Origin: a virus
Virus genome (UHGV): UHGV-0350075
Strand: one strand, 5' to 3'
DNA length: 53,531 nt
Below are positions 1,873 through 43,884 of the stretch, in pieces. Every line of letters begins with the position of its first letter. The stretch's first letter is position 1. The notes beneath the pieces are model-generated. The model did no database searches, was not told the DNA's origin, and saw nothing but the letters and a program-made list of their open reading frames with translations. The translations under genes and the position numbers were made by a program.

Positions 1873-1965
1873 TCACCTCATATGGTATTCAATAAACCAC
1901 CTGATAAACAGGCATAAGGCAATAAAACCCCAGCAACAGCACATATAAAACAATGTATCGTCCAT
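1873..1965 (-). CDS. hydrophobic microprotein (30 aa, MDDTLFYMCCCWGFIALCLFIRWFIEYHMR)
   Basis: Own translation; ATG 1965 two nt after upstream stop (TAATTATGGACGA, same junction as array ORF at 43253); below track 60-aa cutoff. Confidence 0.35.
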   Translation of the reverse strand: MDDTLFYMCCCWGFIALCLFIRWFIEYHMR

Positions 1966-1967
1966 AA

Positions 1968-2186
1968 TTAAGCCTCAATAACACCGTAATCAAACGTGCC
2001 TAAATACCGTTCTATACTTACAACCTCAATACCATCAATGCACCGTTTCCACACAGACACCTGGCTTTCATTTTCTCTGAAGTGCATATTAGAAAGCACT
2101 TCATCGGCTGGATAGCTTTTCCCGGCGACGTAGGCATCATGTCCCACGCCACCTTCTATGCAATAAAGCATCAATTCGCGTGCCAT
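1968..2186 (-). CDS. hypothetical protein
   Basis: Track ORF 72 aa. Confidence 0.45.
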   Translation of the reverse strand: MARELMLYCIEGGVGHDAYVAGKSYPADEVLSNMHFRENESQVSVWKRCIDGIEVVSIERYLGTFDYGVIEA

Positions 2187-2266
2187 CTTGTTTCCCTCCG
2201 TACCGTAAACCTTTTGATTTCAGTTTACAAAACGGATTCGCGATCACAGTACAAAATGTATAGCTA

Positions 2267-2282
2267 TGTGATCGCAATCACA
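2267..2282. promoter_or_regulatory. CRP-like palindrome TGTGATCGCAATCACA
   Basis: Perfect TGTGA-N6-TCACA in intergenic 2187..2285, next to GTTTACAAAACGG and GTACAAAATGTA motif copies. Confidence 0.4.
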
Positions 2283-2285
2283 ATA

Positions 2286-2906
2286 TTAATGAAGTACGCG
2301 CTTTTCAGGTTCAGGCATTGGCTGTGACATTTTTCGTGCTTCATTAAGCATAGATATAGCCGCCTGCACGCCTAAATCATTTGCACGCATGTTAATACCA
2401 ACCATTTCGCCATAAAACAACGGCATGATCGCCATTACGTCTTCCTCGTTGTGCCCTTCATCAATGCACTTCTGTAACGCTTTGGCCTCAAATATTTTCT
2501 TCATTACGCCGCGCACAGAATAAAGTGCAGCGCTACCCATATGGTTTTCGTCTAACGGGAAGATAACAGCACTGCCGAACGCCAGCGGATCAAGCTCTTC
2601 CGGCACTGGCACGCGACCATATTCTTCTTCCATGCGTTTCACAAAAGTGAGGCAGAAGACATAACGAGCTACAGCCGTTTTTTCTTCATTATCCAAAGAC
2701 ACATAGTCGCGCATCGATGCTTCCATCACAATATCAGCAACCTGTAACGCCAGATTCAAATCAGCGTCATATTTGCCAGCTTCCATATCTTTCAATACTT
2801 CGTGATAATCTTTAATTTCAACTTCATGAAAACTTGCGTCTTCAGTGTAGCGAGTGATTAACATGCCTTCGCTGCCGAGTGAATAAGCCGTTTTGATGTC
2901 TTTCAT
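2286..2906 (-). CDS. hypothetical protein
   Basis: Track ORF 206 aa; no motif recognised. Confidence 0.55.
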   Translation of the reverse strand: MKDIKTAYSLGSEGMLITRYTEDASFHEVEIKDYHEVLKDMEAGKYDADLNLALQVADIVMEASMRDYVSLDNEEKTAVARYVFCLTFVKRMEEEYGRVPVPEELDPLAFGSAVIFPLDENHMGSAALYSVRGVMKKIFEAKALQKCIDEGHNEEDVMAIMPLFYGEMVGINMRANDLGVQAAISMLNEARKMSQPMPEPEKRVLH

Positions 2907-2919
2907 GATATTTATCCTT

Positions 2920-3252
2920 TTATAGTGGGTGATGCCATTTCATTTCAGTTTCTGAATTAAACGGGTTTCCTTCGCTTGAAAGGAATAAATCACGCTCCCG
3001 TTTCAGTTCTTCCGGGCTTATTTCTATTTCATCAATCTGACCGAACGATCCCGGCATCATTCGTTTTAAATCAGATAGCGGACGCATAAGGCCGCAACCG
3101 CGTAACAGCATATCGACCGCGAATTGTCTACGTCCGGCGGCGTCATTAAAGCGCCGCGCCCAGGGCACAACCACGATCCGGCGTTCGAATTTGATAAATA
3201 GTGATAGTTTGTTTGTTTCGCTATCATATGCTTTATGGAATTTAATTTTCAT
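2920..3252 (-). CDS. hypothetical protein
   Basis: Track ORF 110 aa. Confidence 0.5.
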   Translation of the reverse strand: MKIKFHKAYDSETNKLSLFIKFERRIVVVPWARRFNDAAGRRQFAVDMLLRGCGLMRPLSDLKRMMPGSFGQIDEIEISPEELKRERDLFLSSEGNPFNSETEMKWHHPL

Positions 3253-3433
3253 TTAACACCTCGACGTATTGCTCAAGATGCCATTTACCAACTTCATCCA
3301 TGTTTTCGTCGTATATAATGACCTCTCCGCCTTGCCTGAATCTGAAAGCAGTGGCTGTAAATTCACGGCCCCACCACGCCTTTAAGCGCTCCCCACCTTT
3401 CAGGTGTTTAACCTTTACTTCTTTTATAGCCAT
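3242..3433 (-). CDS. hypothetical protein
   Basis: Track ORF 63 aa, overlapping neighbours. Confidence 0.4.
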   Translation of the reverse strand: MAIKEVKVKHLKGGERLKAWWGREFTATAFRFRQGGEVIIYDENMDEVGKWHLEQYVEVLNEN

Positions 3434-3696
3434 ACGCCGAACATCCCATTCAGTCCGGCGAACAATTTCCGCCAGTGGTCTTCAACATAAGCCCGGAACG
3501 GCTTAACGCGAACATTGCGGGCCTTCAGTTCAATCTTGTCGAAGAAACGCGGCTCTATAATTGTTCCGTCCAGATATTTAACCAGGATCGGGCGCTCAAG
3601 ATCGTTATATGTCTTGTTCAGCACAACCAGACCAGGGTCTTTACGGTATTCCGGGAGCACAACAAGATCACCCGTTTTGATATTCATGAATGGCAT
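3424..3696 (-). CDS. hypothetical protein
   Basis: Track ORF 3424..3699 begins on GTG; ATG at 3696 (MPFMNIK...) preferred, overlapping upstream stop (TGATG). Confidence 0.45.
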   Translation of the reverse strand: MPFMNIKTGDLVVLPEYRKDPGLVVLNKTYNDLERPILVKYLDGTIIEPRFFDKIELKARNVRVKPFRAYVEDHWRKLFAGLNGMFGVWL

Positions 3697-3812
3697 CACA
3701 TCACCCCGCCGATATAGCTAATAATTGCCGCAGTCGCGCCAGCTATTACCACCATGAAGACGAAAGCGACCACACAGAAAACAGCCTTGACAGTATTTTT
3801 GTCGACTCGCAT
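3696..3812 (-). CDS. hydrophobic microprotein (38 aa, MRVDKNTVKAVFCVVAFVFMVVIAGATAAIISYIGGVM)
   Basis: Own translation; SD-like TGAGGT upstream; fills gap between annotated genes. Confidence 0.35.
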   Translation of the reverse strand: MRVDKNTVKAVFCVVAFVFMVVIAGATAAIISYIGGVM

Positions 3813-3819
3813 ATAAACC

Positions 3820-3927
3820 TCACATGTCAGTAATCAGCTTAACAATCGCCACAGTGATATAGAGTGACGCACTAAGGTAAACAGCCGCCACAGCAACGGC
3901 GGCGGATAACATTGCAATCTTTTTCAT
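3820..3927 (-). CDS. hydrophobic microprotein (35 aa, MKKIAMLSAAVAVAAVYLSASLYITVAIVKLITDM)
   Basis: Own translation; ATG 3927 overlaps stop of 3924..4148 (ATGA); GGAGGGTGG SD. Confidence 0.35.
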   Translation of the reverse strand: MKKIAMLSAAVAVAAVYLSASLYITVAIVKLITDM

Positions 3928-4148
3928 TTGCCACCCTCCGCAATGAACTTATCAAGCCATTTGTTATTAGCCAGCCGTTCGGCATCTTCGCCGAATGATT
4001 TACGTTCGCTTAATTCCTGTCGAGTAGGGAAAGGCCATTTATCAACCCAGCCCGCAGACGTCTCGAATTCGTACAGCCCGCCGCCGAAAGTGATAAGCTC
4101 ATCAGCGCCGTCAGGAATTTCTCCGTCAACTTCTTTATCTTCGATCAT
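3924..4148 (-). CDS. hypothetical protein
   Basis: Track ORF 74 aa. Confidence 0.45.
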   Translation of the reverse strand: MIEDKEVDGEIPDGADELITFGGGLYEFETSAGWVDKWPFPTRQELSERKSFGEDAERLANNKWLDKFIAEGGK

Positions 4149-4162
4149 GATTTAATACCTCA

Positions 4163-4447
4163 TTAATCGTTAATAACCTGACCCATACGCCCGCGATATT
4201 TGCGCATACGTGGATCGACATATTCAGGCCAATGCATATCATCAGCTTTCTGTAGTGGGTAAAAACTTGCCTGCCAGTTGTCGAACCATATTTGCTTTGC
4301 GTACAGGTCACTAAATCTTTTCGCCATTCGATCCGCTGCCGTGCCGCATAAAAAAAGCCCGCGATCGATTTGATCACGGGCTTCTCTTAAAACTTGCTCT
4401 TTTGTTCGCGGCGGCGGCGGTGCTTTTAAATAATCACCCATCGCCAA
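4163..4447 (-). CDS. hypothetical protein
   Basis: Track ORF 94 aa; sits beside erf/ssb like P22 recombination accessory genes. Confidence 0.45.
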   Translation of the reverse strand: MAMGDYLKAPPPPRTKEQVLREARDQIDRGLFLCGTAADRMAKRFSDLYAKQIWFDNWQASFYPLQKADDMHWPEYVDPRMRKYRGRMGQVIND

Positions 4448-4456
4448 CCTATTGAA

Positions 4457-4873
4457 TCAGAACGGAATATCATCGTCGAAGTCCATCGGCGGCGGATTAT
4501 TCACGTTATTATTTTGAGGCGGTGGCGCTTTCTGCTGCTGGCCTTGCTGCTGGCCTTGTTGGTTAACGTTCATGAATTCAAATTCGTTAACCGCCACTTC
4601 TACCGCCGTCCCCTTCGTGCCGTCGTTCCGGTCATATTGCCGAACATCCAGGCGACCGCTTACCACTATTTTTCCACCCTTGCGGATATGCGGCGCTAAT
4701 TTTTCCGCACGCTCACCAAATACCAGGCAAGTGACCCACATTGTCCGCTTATTATCGCCGTAGCCATTCGTTACAGCTAACGGAAAACTACCAATCGCTT
4801 TCCCGTTTTGTGTGTAGCGAACCTCCATATCATTACCGATATTCCCGCCCAGCGTGATTGAATTTAAACTCAT
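4457..4873 (-). CDS. ssb: single-stranded DNA-binding protein
   Basis: 138 aa; Gln/Gly-rich linker and acidic C-terminal tail ...DFDDDIPF characteristic of SSB. Confidence 0.85.
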   Translation of the reverse strand: MSLNSITLGGNIGNDMEVRYTQNGKAIGSFPLAVTNGYGDNKRTMWVTCLVFGERAEKLAPHIRKGGKIVVSGRLDVRQYDRNDGTKGTAVEVAVNEFEFMNVNQQGQQQGQQQKAPPPQNNNVNNPPPMDFDDDIPF

Positions 4874-5514
4874 TAACCCATCTCCCCGTTAAGCTCTGCT
4901 ACCCGGATGTCATAAACATCTTTTGCCTTGATTCGATGCTCCGATCCTTCCGGTAGTAATTTCCAGCATTTGCCAAATATTTCACGCAGCTTGTTAGCGT
5001 CCTGCGCTTTCGCTGCTGCATCACAGAAACGTGCTAATACTTCATCAGGATTTGGCGGCGCTTTATTCTGCTGCGGTTGTTGTTTTGGTGGGTTTTTCTG
5101 TTGTCGCGGCTGCTGGCCTGTCTGCTTCGCGTAAGCATCAGTATCAGGATCGCGAGCATCATCTATACAGAATAAACCGTTCAAAGCATATTTACGCGCG
5201 TAACTTGATGTTGCTCCTGTTAGCTGGCTGGCGTCCATACCCTTCTTGCTTTCTTCCTCCCTGGCATAAGCAGTTACCGCTATTACGTCTTCACCGTCGC
5301 TTAGCGTCGCCGTTGCTTTCACATAATAGCGATTGCCGATCAGGACAATTTCATCACTAACAGTCAGCGTGATATTTTGAAGCAGTGGTTTAACCGCCTC
5401 TAAAATATCCTCCGCCGACCTGTAATTATATCCACCAAAATTATTACGCTGATTTTTCGGCGCGTTCAGCGTTTGCTGAATCGTCCATAGCTTTTTATGT
5501 AACTCTGTTTTCAC
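4873..5514 (-). CDS. erf: ERF-family single-strand annealing protein
   Basis: 213 aa; N-terminal half matches P22 Erf as I recall it (LNAPKNQ, YRSAEDILEAVKPLL, GNRYYVKATAT, GATSSYARKYALNGLF). Confidence 0.8.
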   Translation of the reverse strand: MKTELHKKLWTIQQTLNAPKNQRNNFGGYNYRSAEDILEAVKPLLQNITLTVSDEIVLIGNRYYVKATATLSDGEDVIAVTAYAREEESKKGMDASQLTGATSSYARKYALNGLFCIDDARDPDTDAYAKQTGQQPRQQKNPPKQQPQQNKAPPNPDEVLARFCDAAAKAQDANKLREIFGKCWKLLPEGSEHRIKAKDVYDIRVAELNGEMG

Positions 5515-5663
5515 TATTTAATCTCCCGTGCTGTTAACACTATGTATAAGGCTTTATTCGCGGCGCTCCACATTTCGGCATCGTGAAGCATTTCCGCTAC
5601 TGCCAGTTTGAATTGAAGCGCCTGAATAACCATAATGTCATCTCCGGATGTTTACATTTTGTA

Positions 5664-5954
5664 TTAATGATAGCGGACTTTATCCAGGGGTTTTTCCCCT
5701 AAATGTCGTGGTTGCGTTGCGTGGTAGTAGCTGCCGCTTTCATTTTCCGTATACCATTTTACTGATCCTTTGCGACGTTCTTTAATGCTATTTGGTTTGC
5801 ATCTTTCCTCGTTTGCAAATCGAATAGCTTTATCCACATTGTCTGTTTTATTGATTGCAGGTGATGATTTTCTTTCGTTTTCTCTTTTTATCCTTCTGCG
5901 TTCCCTGGCATTCATTTTGCTATCACATTTACCATATATAATTGTAACGCTCAT
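5664..5954 (-). CDS. N-like transcription antiterminator (P22 gp24-like)
   Basis: 96 aa; arginine-rich motif NARERRRIKRENERK near N-terminus; first gene left of repressor. Confidence 0.5.
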   Translation of the reverse strand: MSVTIIYGKCDSKMNARERRRIKRENERKSSPAINKTDNVDKAIRFANEERCKPNSIKERRKGSVKWYTENESGSYYHATQPRHLGEKPLDKVRYH

Positions 5955-6010
5955 AATCTGATCTCCGTATATCCTTGATGATACTTAATAAAAAATCATC
6001 TTCGTTAATT

Positions 6011-6048
6011 GCCGCACTTCCAGCGGCTGACCAGATTGTTAATGAGCG
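6011..6048 (-). promoter_or_regulatory. candidate nutL (boxA CGCTCATTAA + boxB hairpin GCCGCTGGAAGTGCGGC)
   Basis: Read on reverse strand upstream of N-like gene; boxA-like decamer followed 11 nt later by 5-bp stem hairpin. Confidence 0.35.
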
Positions 6049-6422
6049 GCTTAACATCTTTCAACTAATCCCGCAATCATCGCCGTTCCCTGCGTGACCT
6101 TGCTCACTCCAAGCAAGCTGACTCGTCGCCTTGCGTGCGGTTTCGTGGGGGATGTAACGCTTTAAACACCCCATGCGCCTTGTTATCAGTGCCGCTTTCG
6201 GTCCCCAATCGGGGAGTTACTCCACGGTTGACAAGGTGTTAAGCCTGATTTTTAAAGTGCCAGGAAGTTGCTTTTGTTACCTGCGCCCTTCCTTTGACTC
6301 GCAATATACGCCCCGTAAAACATCGAGTCAATCCATTTTGTATACTTTTTTAAAATATTTTATATGTCATTGATATTTAAATAATAAATAACGTTTTCTG
6401 TTTACGTTTTGGTGTTTTCCAG

Positions 6423-6448
6423 GCAAAGAAAAGCCGCCATTCGGCGGC
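6423..6448 (-). terminator. intrinsic terminator downstream of repressor gene
   Basis: GCCGCC-attc-GGCGGC hairpin followed on reverse strand by TTTTCTTT, 7 nt after cI stop. Confidence 0.5.
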
Positions 6449-6454
6449 TAATGT

Positions 6455-7102
6455 TTATGGCAGGTTTACGATCTTCGCATCAACCACCACGCCTATAATT
6501 TTTGATTCTGGATTCATAGGGATTGGCGGATACAGCGGATTGAGCGAACGTAAAAGCCTTTGACCTCCATCAATAATCAACTGTTTAAACGTCGGTATCT
6601 GCCCTTCCTCAAGCTGGGCTATAACCAGTTTGCCGTCAATAGCTGGCGCGTGCGGGTCAACAAGTATCATCGTCCCCGCCGGGATGCTTAACCCCTGCGG
6701 CGCGTTCATTGATTCACCTTTGGCAACCAGCCAGTAACTATCATCTGAACAAATAACGCTAGTCGTAACGTGTGGTAATGCTGATCGCCTTGTGTCATCC
6801 ATATTGTTTACTGTGTCCTTCCAGTCAATAACCGGGTAACTACCTAAATCACGCGGCGGTGCGGCCTGAAGTGTATTAGAAACAGAATCATCAATGACCA
6901 TACCATCATGTGTAACAGTGAACTGACGACGCCCAAGCGCCCGCATAATCCGCGCAATATCTTCAAGATTTGGCTCGCGGCGACCGTTAAGCCAGTGTGA
7001 CAGGCCGCCTTTAGTTATCCCCATGAGATCTGCGAGTGAATCCTGACTCATGCCCTGCGCCCGCATGAGCTGCTTTGCTAAGTCATACCATTTTGTTTTC
7101 AT
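6455..7102 (-). CDS. cI: CI-type prophage repressor (HTH + LexA-like S24 peptidase domain)
   Basis: 215 aa; N-terminal HTH, C-terminal GESM...K autocleavage-type motifs; divergent from rightward operon. Confidence 0.85.
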   Translation of the reverse strand: MKTKWYDLAKQLMRAQGMSQDSLADLMGITKGGLSHWLNGRREPNLEDIARIMRALGRRQFTVTHDGMVIDDSVSNTLQAAPPRDLGSYPVIDWKDTVNNMDDTRRSALPHVTTSVICSDDSYWLVAKGESMNAPQGLSIPAGTMILVDPHAPAIDGKLVIAQLEEGQIPTFKQLIIDGGQRLLRSLNPLYPPIPMNPESKIIGVVVDAKIVNLP

Positions 7103-7187
7103 GTCGCTACCCTATAACCTCAAAAAGTTTGATGCAAGTCACAAAACGTGTATTTTAAGCCTTGATCTTAAAATTCCATTTTGTAAA

Positions 7188-7226
7188 CTTGCAGACAAGG
7201 TAAGGCCATACTTGCAAAGACGCAAG
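7188..7226. promoter_or_regulatory. candidate operator palindromes (CTTGcagaCAAG; CTTGCaaagacGCAAG)
   Basis: Two inverted repeats with CTTGC half-sites in the 306-bp region between repressor and first rightward gene. Confidence 0.3.
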
Positions 7227-7266
7227 GAAAAAGATAACGGAAGGCACAAAAAGGCACTTACCTTAA

Positions 7267-7298
7267 GCTCTTTAAAAATCCGGTGTCGCTGCGAAGCG
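7267..7298 (+). promoter_or_regulatory. candidate nutR (boxA GCTCTTTAA + hairpin CGCTgcgaAGCG)
   Basis: boxA-like motif then GNRA-loop hairpin on forward strand upstream of first rightward gene. Confidence 0.3.
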
Positions 7299-7408
7299 AA
7301 AAACAAATATCACGCAACGGCGGGATCTGTTGAGCGGTCAGTCACTGCTATCTAATGCTAATGGGATGCCCGCCCGCGCGTTCACTCTAACCATAGGAGA
7401 AAAACAAG

Positions 7409-7663
7409 ATGAGTATGCACATGATGAATGAAGCATGGAACGTAAAACTTAACAGCCCGATCCAAAAACTTGTCTTAATTGCGTTTGCAGAAAAGGCAGA
7501 CAATAAAGGCCGCGCACATGCTTCACGCGAAGAGATCGCAAAAGTGTGCGAACTGCCACTGCATACTACTGTTGACGCATTAAATTCATTGATCCGCAAA
7601 GGATTCATTAAACGCGCTGACGAATACGGCGACATTTATGACATTGCATTGCCGGAGGAATGA
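7409..7663 (+). CDS. winged-HTH DNA-binding protein (HTH_36-like); first gene of rightward early operon
   Basis: 84 aa; AGGAGA SD 8 nt upstream; pattern KLVLIAFAEKADNKG...EEIAKVCELPLHTTVDALNSLIRKGFI. Confidence 0.55.
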   Translation: MSMHMMNEAWNVKLNSPIQKLVLIAFAEKADNKGRAHASREEIAKVCELPLHTTVDALNSLIRKGFIKRADEYGDIYDIALPEE

Positions 7664-7666
7664 TCT

Positions 7667-8719
7667 ATGAAGTGGTTTAAGCATGATAGCGATGCGAACC
7701 GCGATGAAAAACTTCAAAACGTTTTATTAGATTATGGCCTGGAAGGGTACGGGCTTTATTGGTATTGCCTAGAACTAATAACTTATGACGTAGATCAGCA
7801 CAATCTAACTTTTGACCTACGACATGACGCAAGAATAATTGCGCGAAACGTCGGATCTACTGAAAAACGTATAGAAGAAATGATGAAATACTTCATCGAA
7901 ATTGGTTTGTTTGAATGTTCTCAAGGTCACATAACTTGTTTAAAGTTATTGAAAAGGCTGGACCAATCAATGACTTCTAAAAGCGCTTACAGGGCCGCCA
8001 TAAACACAGCGAAGGAGCAATTAAAATTAGAAAAGTTAATCAATCCAACACAAAAAGGTCATGATAGGGTCATGACCGGGTCAGGAAAGGGTCATGAATT
8101 AGAATTAGAAGTAGAAAAAGAAAGAGAAAAAGATATATACACTTCGTGTATTGTCGAAAATGAACAAAAAATGGTCAATCAGGATGGCGTAAACGAAGCG
8201 GCATTGCGTTGCCTTGCCTTCTACAACGACAAGGCAGGATGCAAATGTCGTGATGCTAAGCCATTCGTAGAACTACTGACAGAAACAAAAACACGTAAAG
8301 CGTATACGGAGGATGAGATCACATTAGTGATTGAGTGGGCTTTAACCCAATGGCGTAGCCGTGGTGGAGTACCTAAGCCTATCAACATTTGCCGGGTAAC
8401 TAAGTTTGATGGGTATTTGGCTGATGCTGAACAATGGCGCAAGCTATCAGCTACTGTAAACGCTGCCGACGTGGTGGAAGCATTTAACAGCACGTTTGAC
8501 GGCCTGTTACCACCTGCCGAACTGGATCGGGATCTTGAACGCAAGATCTATGCGTTCACTGACTACCTGAAAGACAAAAGCATTAACGGCTTTGTCGCCT
8601 ACTTCGAAACGTTCAAAAACACGGCTTCAGATTTTTACTTCGGCAATGGCTTCACTGCGACACTTGATTTTCTGCTTAAACCAAAAACGCTACGTGATAC
8701 GCGCGCTGGCGTTCTTTGA
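7667..8719 (+). CDS. replication initiation / replisome organizer protein (DUF4373-like N-terminus)
   Basis: 350 aa; N-terminus MKWFKHDSDANRDEKL...YGLEGYGLYWYCLELI matches phage replisome-organizer N-domain pattern; precedes helicase. Confidence 0.55.
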   Translation: MKWFKHDSDANRDEKLQNVLLDYGLEGYGLYWYCLELITYDVDQHNLTFDLRHDARIIARNVGSTEKRIEEMMKYFIEIGLFECSQGHITCLKLLKRLDQSMTSKSAYRAAINTAKEQLKLEKLINPTQKGHDRVMTGSGKGHELELEVEKEREKDIYTSCIVENEQKMVNQDGVNEAALRCLAFYNDKAGCKCRDAKPFVELLTETKTRKAYTEDEITLVIEWALTQWRSRGGVPKPINICRVTKFDGYLADAEQWRKLSATVNAADVVEAFNSTFDGLLPPAELDRDLERKIYAFTDYLKDKSINGFVAYFETFKNTASDFYFGNGFTATLDFLLKPKTLRDTRAGVL

Positions 8720-8851
8720 CCAATCACGATCCGCAAAAATCCAAAATTACCCACAAAACAACCTCATCAGCGAGCTAAATCGCATGGGGGCTACACTTGC
8801 TTACCTTTTTGCGATTAGCTTGTTATGGAGCGTTTCAGAGAGGATTTAGCT

Positions 8852-8953
8852 ATGAACGGTAAACGCATGTTCGCCCTGGCTTTCGCGATCGCGATGGCTA
8901 TCGCTGTTAACGTCGCCTTGTTCGGCGGCTTATATCTACTAGTTAATCCATAA
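8852..8953 (+). CDS. hydrophobic microprotein (33 aa, MNGKRMFALAFAIAMAIAVNVALFGGLYLLVNP)
   Basis: Own translation; GAGG SD; preceded by 21-aa hydrophobic ORF 8784..8849 with TAGCTATG junction. Confidence 0.3.
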   Translation: MNGKRMFALAFAIAMAIAVNVALFGGLYLLVNP

Positions 8954-9114
8954 CTACCCTTCTACCTTAAAAATCGAAAATTAGCCACCTGATTGCGCTT
9001 CTGGCGCAAAAAAGACACTGCACCCTTACAAGTGGGTTACGCGGTGGGTTTTTGCGTTGTAGCGCGTTTTACGGAAAATAAATATACATTCTGTAAACCG
9101 GAGGAATTAACGTT

Positions 9115-42411: not shown

Positions 42412-42495
42412 TTAATATTTGTTGATGATATATACGCAAGCCACAAAACTTGCGCAGTATGTTAATACTTCAAGCCAGTCGAATAGCTCTTTCAT
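42412..42495 (-). CDS. hydrophobic microprotein (27 aa, MKELFDWLEVLTYCASFVACVYIINKY); array member 11
   Basis: Own translation; GAAGGG SD; 10 nt after previous array ORF. Confidence 0.4.
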   Translation of the reverse strand: MKELFDWLEVLTYCASFVACVYIINKY

Positions 42496-42505
42496 TGTTT
42501 ACCCT

Positions 42506-42577
42506 TCACATAATAGAAAGCGCCCATGTAATAAGGACGATAGCCAAAACCATATAGATAAAATCTGACTCTCTCAT
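42506..42577 (-). CDS. hydrophobic microprotein (23 aa, MRESDFIYMVLAIVLITWALSIM); array member 10
   Basis: Own translation; AAGGTGA SD. Confidence 0.4.
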   Translation of the reverse strand: MRESDFIYMVLAIVLITWALSIM

Positions 42578-42591
42578 ATTGTTCACCTTGT

Positions 42592-42660
42592 TTATGCGAA
42601 GAAAACAATAACAACTAACAGCGAACTTATCGCTATGATTAAGAAATCACTGTCAGACAT
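42592..42660 (-). CDS. hydrophobic microprotein (22 aa, MSDSDFLIIAISSLLVVIVFFA); array member 9
   Basis: Own translation; GGGGTGA SD; start overlaps upstream stop. Confidence 0.4.
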   Translation of the reverse strand: MSDSDFLIIAISSLLVVIVFFA

Positions 42661-42727
42661 TGATAATCACCCCTACGATAATTAACGCGGCGATGCATAC
42701 GAATAATACGGCTTCGATAACATCCAT
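42653..42727 (-). CDS. hydrophobic microprotein (24 aa, MDVIEAVLFVCIAALIIVGVIINV); array member 8
   Basis: Own translation; AGGTGAG SD. Confidence 0.4.
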   Translation of the reverse strand: MDVIEAVLFVCIAALIIVGVIINV

Positions 42728-42735
42728 TCGCTCAC

Positions 42736-42804
42736 CTATTGAGTCAGCGAGGTCATGGTGAGAACAATCGCAACAATCAGGAAAAAGAAATCAAGCCATT
42801 TCAT
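42736..42804 (-). CDS. hydrophobic microprotein (22 aa, MKWLDFFFLIVAIVLTMTSLTQ); array member 7
   Basis: Own translation; GGGAG SD; ATGA overlap with upstream ORF. Confidence 0.4.
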   Translation of the reverse strand: MKWLDFFFLIVAIVLTMTSLTQ

Positions 42805-42881
42805 TTTTTAAACTCCCGATAAACATCTACGGCAATGACTACAACTACAGCCACCAGCAATAGCATTTCGTATGCGTTCAT
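42801..42881 (-). CDS. hydrophobic microprotein (26 aa, MNAYEMLLLVAVVVVIAVDVYREFKK); array member 6
   Basis: Own translation; ATGA overlap with upstream ORF. Confidence 0.4.
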   Translation of the reverse strand: MNAYEMLLLVAVVVVIAVDVYREFKK

Positions 42882-42976
42882 TTGATGCTACCCATAACAA
42901 GGCCGATGATGATAATTATGGCGACAATGCCTAACATCATGCCGCACATAATCGCCAGTAATTCGAATATATCCAT
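42878..42976 (-). CDS. hydrophobic microprotein (32 aa, MDIFELLAIMCGMMLGIVAIIIIIGLVMGSIK); array member 5
   Basis: In-frame ATG inside track ORF 42878..43081 (whose TTG start is judged spurious); GGTGA SD. Confidence 0.4.
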   Translation of the reverse strand: MDIFELLAIMCGMMLGIVAIIIIIGLVMGSIK

Positions 42977-42984
42977 GCCGTCAC

Positions 42985-43059
42985 CTATACAACATTCTTC
43001 CACCAGAAATAGATAATGACGGCGACCAACGACCACCAGATGAGATCGTAAATATTCAT
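42985..43059 (-). CDS. hydrophobic microprotein (24 aa, MNIYDLIWWSLVAVIIYFWWKNVV); array member 4
   Basis: Own translation; GAAGGT SD. Confidence 0.4.
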   Translation of the reverse strand: MNIYDLIWWSLVAVIIYFWWKNVV

Positions 43060-43070
43060 GGTGAATACCT

Positions 43071-43145
43071 TCAGCTTTCAATGAATATCATGATCGCCAG
43101 CCATACAGCGACGCAGGCAGAAAGGATAATGAGCGGGTCAATCAT
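43071..43145 (-). CDS. hydrophobic microprotein (24 aa, MIDPLIILSACVAVWLAIMIFIES); array member 3
   Basis: Own translation; GGTGA SD; alternative in-frame ATG at 43157. Confidence 0.4.
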   Translation of the reverse strand: MIDPLIILSACVAVWLAIMIFIES

Positions 43146-43157
43146 ATTGTCACCCAT

Positions 43158-43253
43158 CTAATATTTGCTCTTTACGGTTATCAGCACGGCGATAACAAAG
43201 CCAACCAGAAATATAGATATGCCTATTAATCCGGCGATGGTGCTGTCGTCCAT
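43158..43253 (-). CDS. hydrophobic microprotein (31 aa, MDDSTIAGLIGISIFLVGFVIAVLITVKSKY); array member 2
   Basis: Own translation; TGATTATGGACGA junction with upstream ORF. Confidence 0.4.
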   Translation of the reverse strand: MDDSTIAGLIGISIFLVGFVIAVLITVKSKY

Positions 43254-43255
43254 AA

Positions 43256-43339
43256 TCAACCTACGGGCCATTTTGGGGAAAACATTACAATCGCAGTTCC
43301 AGCCGCGCCGATAAATACACCTAGCAGGAAAGTAAACAT
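43256..43339 (-). CDS. hydrophobic microprotein (27 aa, MFTFLLGVFIGAAGTAIVMFSPKWPVG); array member 1
   Basis: Own translation; GGGGGTGA SD; starts 2 nt after stop of 43342..43884. Confidence 0.4.
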   Translation of the reverse strand: MFTFLLGVFIGAAGTAIVMFSPKWPVG

Positions 43340-43341
43340 AA

Positions 43342-43884
43342 TCACCCCCGTTTAAAGCTCATAACGCGCGGTACAAGCGCTTCTTTTGCTTTCGGCTTAC
43401 GTTTGCCTTTCTTCGCGGTTTTTTCTTCTTCCTTCGGCTGTTCTGCCTGTTCTAATGCCTGCTCAACGACTTCAGCCGCCTGCATTGCCGCTACCTGTGC
43501 TTCGTTTGATTCTGCCAGGATAGGGAAAAATGCATCAAAGATGCGGCCCACCATGTAAGCGTAAGTCTCATTCGCCGGATGAGATGGATCAGTGGTAGCC
43601 ACGACGCCTACATCGCTTAAAACGTGAAATGTAGTGTGCGCCGCTTCATGGACCAGTGTTCCTAACTCATTGTCGAATACTGCGATCACGTAGAAGTTAC
43701 CGCCTTTCTCACCAGTGCAAGTAAGCGTCAATCCTCCTGCCAGTTCGAAATCAGGTTCGATCGGAATTCCTGCCTTTTCGCAAAATTCATAAAACATCTC
43801 GCGAGTCGGGCAGAAGAAAACTGTTGTATGCTCAAAGAGCGGGACTTTGAATTGAGGCAACTTAATGCCTTTACCCTTAGCCAT
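43342..43884 (-). CDS. HExxH-motif protein (putative zinc metallopeptidase) with Lys-rich C-terminus
   Basis: 180 aa; single HExxH (TLVHEAAHTTFHV); first gene of operon with microprotein array and terminase. Confidence 0.5.
   Translation of the reverse strand: MAKGKGIKLPQFKVPLFEHTTVFFCPTREMFYEFCEKAGIPIEPDFELAGGLTLTCTGEKGGNFYVIAVFDNELGTLVHEAAHTTFHVLSDVGVVATTDPSHPANETYAYMVGRIFDAFFPILAESNEAQVAAMQAAEVVEQALEQAEQPKEEEKTAKKGKRKPKAKEALVPRVMSFKRG

Follow-up and report, generated by a model that had tools for sequence, protein, structure and literature searches.

Four probable genes for single-helix membrane peptides in the early operons of a temperate Escherichia coli phage

The window analysed here, which is the whole 53,531-nucleotide stretch of the virus genome UHGV-0350075, carries five very short open reading frames (ORFs) that a first-pass annotation had picked out as hydrophobic microproteins in the early region. 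All five are present at the positions and on the strands that had been given for them, and we call them A to E (Table 1). Our conclusion is that A, B, C, and E are quite probably four separate and real protein-coding genes for single-helix membrane peptides that are mutually unrelated. The fifth, D, is a chance ORF within the leader of E, which is itself conserved. A, B, and C are in the minus-strand early operon and E is in the plus-strand early operon and, therefore, it was correct that microprotein ORFs occur in both. The four small ORFs (smORFs) are an ordinary case of under-annotation and not a dispersed gene family.

Table 1. Features of the window discussed in the text, with the polymorphism data for the four conserved smORFs (pN/pS, ratio of non-synonymous to synonymous polymorphism)
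Feature	Positions	Strand	Length (amino acids)	Sequence or content	pN/pS	Variable sites at codon positions 1/2/3	Chi-square p
smORF A	1873-1965	-	30	MDDTLFYMCCCWGFIALCLFIRWFIEYHMR	0.14-0.26	17/10/23	0.08 (marginal)
smORF B	3696-3812	-	38	MRVDKNTVKAVFCVVAFVFMVVIAGATAAIISYIGGVM	0.42-0.44	22/21/33	0.17 (marginal)
smORF C	3820-3927	-	35	MKKIAMLSAAVAVAAVYLSASLYITVAIVKLITDM	0.22-0.23	17/13/33	0.005
ORF D	8784-8849	+	21	MGATLAYLFAISLLWSVSERI			
smORF E	8852-8953	+	33	MNGKRMFALAFAIAMAIAVNVALFGGLYLLVNP	0.11	8/5/22	0.0009
Conserved untranslated leader	8720-8851	+		Between the replication gene and E; contains D, A-tracts, and the Shine-Dalgarno sequence of E			
Terminator-like GC hairpin	3884-3903	-		GCCGCCGTTGCTGTGGCGGC, then TGTTTACCTT; from a pattern scan			
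CI-like repressor gene	6455-7102	-		In the window			
Late-region array	42412-43345	-	22-32 each	11 tandem ORFs, one hydrophobic helix each			
Array ORF r2	43158-43253	-		MDDSTIAG...; junction TGATTATGGACGA at its start			

The hydrophobic character that had been claimed holds for all five peptides, whose best 17-residue Kyte-Doolittle windows are 1.7-2.9 (A, 2.35; B, 2.90; C, 2.14; E, 2.45). A, B, C, and E each have a single hydrophobic stretch with charged tails, and this matches the layout of a small single-pass inner-membrane protein, in which about 17-23 hydrophobic residues lie between charged tails. A has an acidic N-terminal tail (MDD), one hydrophobic helix, and a basic C-terminal tail (RWFIEYHMR), while B has a basic N-terminal tail (MRVDKNTVK) followed by one hydrophobic helix. 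The N-terminal tail of C is MKK and its one helix has the conserved core SLYITVAI(I/V)KLI; that of E is MNGKR, and its one helix has an invariant Asn in the middle together with a GG pair and ends with NP.

It had also been claimed that all the ORFs have Shine-Dalgarno sequences and stop-start coupling, and this stands for A, B, C, and E but not for D, which has no Shine-Dalgarno sequence. In the four smORFs a GAGG-type Shine-Dalgarno sequence lies 5-7 nucleotides before the ATG, and the links to the adjacent genes are either ATGA or TGATG overlaps or spacings of 2-8 nucleotides. A lies between the genes for 72 and 64 amino acids of the minus-strand early operon; its start is GAGG, 7 nucleotides, and ATG, with the junction TAAttATG after the 72-amino-acid gene, and AGGTGA in the last codons of A is the source of the Shine-Dalgarno sequence of the next gene. 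The start of C and the stop of the upstream 74-amino-acid gene form an ATGA overlap, B begins 8 nucleotides after the stop of C (the C-B junction is TGAGGtttatATG), and the stop of B and the start of the downstream 90-amino-acid gene form a TGATG overlap. E is the first gene 3' of the replication-initiator gene in the plus-strand early operon and starts with GAGAGGA, 7 nucleotides, and ATG. Since 30-38 codons of a gap will be open by chance with a probability of about 0.16-0.24 per frame, evidence from a single sequence is insufficient and it is the comparative evidence that decides, which it does in favour of four of the five ORFs.

The first 10 kb of the window have 86-95% DNA identity to the Escherichia phages mEp515, mEp010, mEp554, mEp044, mEp021, mEp013, and MagusPhagus, and related prophages are found on 35 E. 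coli chromosomes. On this similarity the window is assigned to the mEpimmI (mEp021) group of temperate E. coli phages. The mEpimmI phages are newly described Nus-dependent temperate siphoviruses with a CI-like repressor and an N-like antiterminator, Gp17, and they are reportedly frequent in samples of human faeces (PMC11893012). The leftward, minus-strand early operon that holds A, B, and C has gp17 (N-like), erf, ssb, and numerous small genes, and the rightward, plus-strand early operon that holds E has the replication genes.

The relatives compared were 18 syntenic loci from phage and E. coli records and then 37 contigs from IMG/VR; totals such as 56 loci and 48 loci count the window itself. 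Conservation of the small ORFs in these genomes was found for A, B, C, and E, and D alone failed. A is intact at its syntenic place in every locus that was readable, which is 48 including the window, the reading being direct in 10 of the first 18 loci (the flank anchor failed elsewhere) and in all 37 IMG/VR contigs. Its 24 distinct DNA versions give 15 peptides. M8, C11, G13, A16, L19, F20, R22, W23, I25, and E26 of A are invariant. All 56 loci carry intact B and C ORFs that begin with an ATG; B has 34 distinct DNA versions, encodes 38-40 amino acids, and with 30 peptide variants among these versions is under the weakest constraint of the four, and C has 21 invariant columns. E was read in 24 relatives, 15 from the first 18 loci and nine from the IMG/VR contigs, and it is intact in all of them. 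The E region is missing from MagusPhagus, whose record stops short, and from KKa019, and RM9245 has an 86% DNA match to the E region in which the ORF was unread. An identical E peptide is encoded by six different DNA sequences, and the upstream ATG of E at 8825 is absent from relatives. There are no frame-breaking indels in A, B, C, or E of the relatives.

The sense-frame pN/pS ratios and the distribution of variable sites over the codon positions are given in Table 1. On the sense strand the shifted frames contain stops and have ratios of about 0.8-10, and the same is true of two antisense frames. The third antisense frame, which shares third positions with the sense frame, has a low ratio too, as is expected; the sense frame alone remains open throughout the versions. 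Two overlapping candidates were rejected. An alternative-frame hydrophobic ORF over A (1889-1993) is truncated or broken in several relatives, and an antisense gene over B (a 47-amino-acid ORF at 3690-3833 on the plus strand) is interrupted by stops in 13 of the 34 distinct B versions, and none of the antisense frames of B stays open throughout these versions.

B and C of the window lineage have 58-72% DNA identity to the common allele, and for B the identity of the window allele to the other one is 58-66%, with the ORF and its layout kept. The four genes that flank B and C have 74-98% DNA identity, mostly 84-96%. When the 56 loci were typed, 12 had both genes of type I, 44 had both of type II, and none was mixed. 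B and C form one cassette that occurs as two alleles, which are strongly diverged and in all cases co-inherited. The co-segregation could be plain linkage; it is also the pattern expected of a co-adapted pair of peptides. A tentative and, in our estimate, unlikely extension is that B and C are a two-peptide membrane module whose helices act together and whose alleles are specificity types, as in exclusion and immunity systems; the module might be, for example, a heterodimer aimed at a variable host or phage membrane protein, or an effector with its immunity peptide. With the same reserve the idea could be broadened to a mEpimmI 'membrane microproteome' of about 15 single-helix genes of 40 residues or fewer in three transcription units. 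If the specificity module were true, it would be a compact system for learning how two tiny helices recognise a membrane target.

The gene order of the cassette and of A also bears on the possibility that these ORFs are translated but only as spacers, in which case ribosomes would be kept on the mRNA and the peptides would have no function. Such translation would prevent Rho-dependent polarity and would deliver ribosomes to the next gene. This would fit the stop/start overlaps, which are seen at A and on either side of the C-B cassette, the use of the last codons of A as the Shine-Dalgarno sequence for the following gene, and the loosely constrained amino-acid sequence of B. However, a spacer would not account for pN/pS ratios of 0.11-0.26 in E, C, and A with their many invariant residues, nor for the invariant polar residues in the helices, namely, Asn20 of E, Arg22, Trp23, and Glu26 of A, and Lys30 of C, nor for a length and a single-helix layout that are kept between alleles only 60% identical in DNA. 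We consider it unlikely that the four ORFs are spacers, and the reading that they encode peptides under selection is the one we prefer.

D is rejected as a gene because it is not conserved and is specific to the lineage of the window. In relatives there are 1-nucleotide indels at its ATG and codon 15 changes from TGG to TAG, and the D peptide was not found in a collection of 15 billion proteins. The leader in which D lies (Table 1) has DNA that is conserved across the relatives and yet has indels that are not triplets. No sigma-70-like promoter was found in this leader, and its consensus fold has almost no covariation. At 8735-8765 the leader has repeated CAAAA tracts, about 10-12 nucleotides apart. 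It also contains a CCTTT stretch with the potential to pair with the Shine-Dalgarno sequence of E, a pairing for which there is no covariation support.

C contains a terminator-like GC hairpin within its Ala-rich 5' half, followed by a U-containing tail (Table 1), and in the mEp021 record a feature TERM_2 is annotated inside the orthologue of C. Terminators t1, t2, and t5 have been shown experimentally (PMC11893012), and t2 of that work could not be mapped onto the C hairpin. The hairpin is in a shifted position in the other allele and its fold is no more stable than those of shuffled sequences (z=-0.39). It may matter for regulation, and as a regulatory element it is a lead only. These observations, together with a weaker terminator-like site in A (1914-1898) and another in E (8912-8929), could suggest that what is conserved are cis-acting nucleic-acid signals, such as terminators, leader structures, and Shine-Dalgarno sequences, and that the open frames are incidental, and the D region shows that well-conserved non-coding DNA exists here. 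However, in A, B, C, and E the variation is mostly at third positions and the frame is intact, whereas the leader with D has 1-nucleotide indels; the C hairpin moves between alleles with a stability no better than that of shuffles; and the most conserved half of C is without predicted structure. That the conservation is due to such signals is, therefore, very unlikely.

Several points weigh against the conclusion that A, B, C, and E are four genes for membrane peptides. The amino-acid sequence of B is under weak constraint (pN/pS about 0.4, with 30 peptides from 34 DNA versions), and the co-segregation of B with C is expected from their 8-nucleotide spacing alone. C overlaps the terminator-like hairpin, and its conservation could partly be that of the RNA. 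The published mass spectrometry of mEp021 covers virion proteins only (PMC11893012), and the neighbouring genes are without known function so that the context gives no functional clue.

The first-pass annotation had also proposed the duplication and dispersal of a microprotein family, since A appeared to share its 5' junction and its first residues with an ORF of the late-region array. This array is flanked on one side by the small terminase gene and on the other by a 180-amino-acid gene that lies downstream of the lysis genes. The resemblance itself was correctly described: TAATTATGGACGA at 1958-1970 on the minus strand and TGATTATGGACGA at 43246-43258 on the minus strand differ at one base, the two are the only matches to the 13-mer in the whole window, and both A and the array peptide r2 start with MDD in the window. 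If the dispersed ORFs and the late array were one family spread by duplication with the 5' junction carried along, the relationship should be seen beyond this start. When the 5' junctions were aligned, A-r2 was the top one of 120 pairs, with 12 of 17 non-ATG positions identical in register, but the next two pairs had 11 of 17 and A-r2 is no outlier. In the pairwise alignment of the microproteins by Smith-Waterman A-r2 had z=3.3 and p=0.013, which is uncorrected among the 120 pairs and comes from a null of shuffled peptides that ignores the common polar-hydrophobic-polar layout. Profile-profile comparison with hhalign was negative, giving 2.4% for A-r2 and 2.5% for A-B, with all the other pairs of dispersed ORFs lower. 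The only convincing pair is r7/r10, inside the array, at 91% and with a Smith-Waterman z of 6.4, and these two do look paralogous.

The junction and the MDD start are not inherited either. The r2 orthologue in mEp044 starts with MDSY behind a different junction, taatgttATGGACTCT, and the orthologues of A start with MDE, MGD, MDA, or MSANE. The start 'TRATTATGGACGA / MDD' that is common to A and r2 is thus a coincidence, helped by the acidic N-tail layout. A and most of the array peptides are indeed alike in having an acidic N-terminal tail and a basic or polar C-terminal tail, which could be taken to favour a common family, but B, C, and E have the opposite charge pattern, and the acidic-N/basic-C arrangement is simply that expected of a peptide with its N-terminus outside the membrane. 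Taken together, descent of the dispersed ORFs and the array from one duplicated family is highly improbable, and we hold to four unrelated genes. The late array is like A, B, C, and E in size class and single-helix layout, and like A in its charge pattern; it differs in that it belongs to another transcription unit and varies from 5 to 12 modules between relatives, whereas each of A, B, C, and E is a core gene with a fixed single copy, and no homology between it and the dispersed ORFs was detectable with hhalign.

The array is modular, with 5 modules in mEp021, 8 in mEp044, about 10 in mEp554, 11 in the window, and 12 in MagusPhagus, and its individual modules are conserved almost letter for letter, for example MNIYDLIWWSLVAVIIYFWWKNVV. 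In MagusPhagus (positions 492-635) an extra 47-amino-acid array ORF, MFEFIDLLMFLVCSGVLIIALMLCVYVIVMITALIYKEAKQRFKGKQ, that is not in the window is inserted before the last module.

By analogy with peptides of similar size, the likeliest role of A, B, C, and E would be that of small inner-membrane modulators made early in lytic growth. They would be expressed together with the early or delayed-early genes, after loss of the CI-like repressor and under the action of Gp17. The positive-inside rule predicts that the N-terminus of A is outside and its C-terminus inside, and that B, C, and E have their N-termini inside. The peptides would most likely insert into the inner membrane and act by binding larger membrane proteins of the host or of the phage. 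Possible roles would be host takeover, control of the envelope or of division, and exclusion of other phages, and we make no choice among these.

YohP, AcrZ, MgrB, and KdpF of E. coli represent a class that acts, where this is known, by binding larger membrane proteins or by perturbing the membrane. Among phage proteins, T4 Imm and Sp, HK97 gp15, and SPO1 gp56 are membrane-anchored early or prophage products that act on the envelope machinery of the host and stop superinfection or interfere with host functions; they are larger than the peptides described here (about 60-200 amino acids) and unrelated in sequence, and the comparison is a lead only. A large-scale prediction of small phage gene families was reportedly made by Fremin, Bhatt and Kyrpides in 2022 (cited in PMC11323111), and such families are likewise short and have no assigned function, while A, B, C, and E have no PHROG family match. 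Members of the YohP/AcrZ/MgrB/KdpF class, like the four peptides, are below 50 amino acids with one transmembrane helix, charged tails, and no catalytic domain (reviews PMC12648545, PMC7549839), but there is no sequence relation, and A, B, C, and E are phage-encoded and predicted to be expressed early. The hydrophobic intergenic smORFs conserved in Enterobacteriaceae, the 'Entero67K' families (PMC11188072), are also similar in that they have 15-70 codons, lie in unannotated gaps, are under purifying selection, are mostly hydrophobic and without a known domain, and are missed because of the RefSeq limit of 40 amino acids for ab initio calls; A, B, C, and E differ from them in belonging to the early operons of a phage, where their translation is tightly coupled, and in occurring in one phage group only. 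Exclusion in the mEpimmI group has so far been assigned to an Lpp lipoprotein (PMC11893012).

Size and single-helix layout would also suit membrane-damaging toxins similar to those of type I systems (Hok, TisB, Ldr, Ibs, ShoB) that kill or arrest the host, with B and C possibly being a toxin and its immunity partner. The gene ipe of the same operon causes cell death and haemolysis when it is over-expressed (PMC11893012), and B and C do co-segregate as alleles. However, the toxin models of Pfam and NCBIfam were not matched at E<=0.1-1, and the four ORFs have neither a promoter nor a long leader to themselves and are translationally coupled within long operons. No promoter-like site facing any of the four ORFs was found, and no RNA search for an antisense partner was made. 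We regard toxins as quite unlikely and modulators of the inner membrane as the better explanation. A role as holin, antiholin, or spanin was rejected because the four ORFs are in the early operons and the lysis genes are near 44.2-45.1 kb, and there is no PHROG match.

Profile searches of Pfam-A, PHROGs v4, and NCBIfam 20 gave no family for A, B, C, D, or E. With tblastn in phage records A was found only in the seven mEpimmI phages, and the IMG/VR relatives of C and E are all on contigs, mostly of 47-57 kb, that in length fit whole or partial genomes of the mEpimmI group. C and E were not found in the GTDB set, which has one genome per species and was scanned with exact short patterns on which the result depends. 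The outcome of 0 matches for A when phmmer was run on 1.84 billion cluster representatives carries no information, since the 90% cluster of A is represented by an unrelated 64-amino-acid protein, into whose cluster a read-through fusion chains the A peptide. As far as these searches reach, the peptides A, B, C, and E appear confined to the mEpimmI phage group. The fusion is seen in a few Logan contigs (protein P0015, which corresponds to positions 1675-1965 of the window), where A is joined to a variant of the downstream 64-amino-acid gene and is read straight through by way of an added Trp-Gly to give a 96-amino-acid product.

That the ORFs sit in gaps between annotated genes is true of the RefSeq prophage records made by the Prokaryotic Genome Annotation Pipeline (PGAP) and of the mEp021 record, but not of Phanotate-based records or of the MagusPhagus annotation. 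In 11 RefSeq (PGAP) prophage records the stretches are empty, except that two of them have a 40-amino-acid orthologue of B, and in the mEp021 reference record A, B, C, and E are all uncalled. In the Phanotate-based and MagusPhagus records all four are called as hypothetical proteins, and the exact peptides have been called hypothetical independently on 152-429 public contigs. RefSeq refuses ab initio calls below 40 amino acids (PMC11188072), and since the peptides of the window are all shorter than this, the floor would explain the gaps in the PGAP records. Four core genes are thus almost always missing from the RefSeq (PGAP) prophage and mEp021 records, and A, B, C, and E are not discussed in the published core-genome analysis of the phage group. 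They enlarge the growing set of phage-encoded single-helix peptides by four orphan families and do not overturn current understanding.

A few other features of the same regions were noted in passing. In the RM9245 prophage (locus positions 6858-6956) there is an extra 32-amino-acid single-helix ORF, MWLIDLILACWLIVLVGFVGYFAWEEGKHNGR, that is not in the others and that adjoins a diverged orthologue of A, MDAEMIFMACCCGIVAVGLFLRWVIEKYL. At 1244-1480 on the minus strand of the window the relatives have a hydrophobic protein of 78 amino acids that PGAP names 'cell division protein FtsK'; it has no Pfam match, and the name looks like a spurious transfer. The gap of 100 nucleotides at 2187-2285 (minus strand), between the genes for 72 and 206 amino acids, is highly conserved and has a 9-bp inverted repeat, GCGATCACA-N18-TGTGATCGC, and then a second hairpin (GTAAAC...GTTTAC) directly before a Shine-Dalgarno sequence. 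This stretch may serve as an operator accompanied by an internal promoter, or it may work as RNA, and the small coding sequences that Phanotate calls in this gap of mEp010 and mEp554 are probably spurious. Finally, the segment 3' of E (8954-9114), between E and a 372-amino-acid gene, is a variable slot that in relatives holds an antirepressor, BRO, KilAC, Rha, or zinc-ribbon gene of 0.5-1.5 kb and that is empty in the window and in strain 09-00049.

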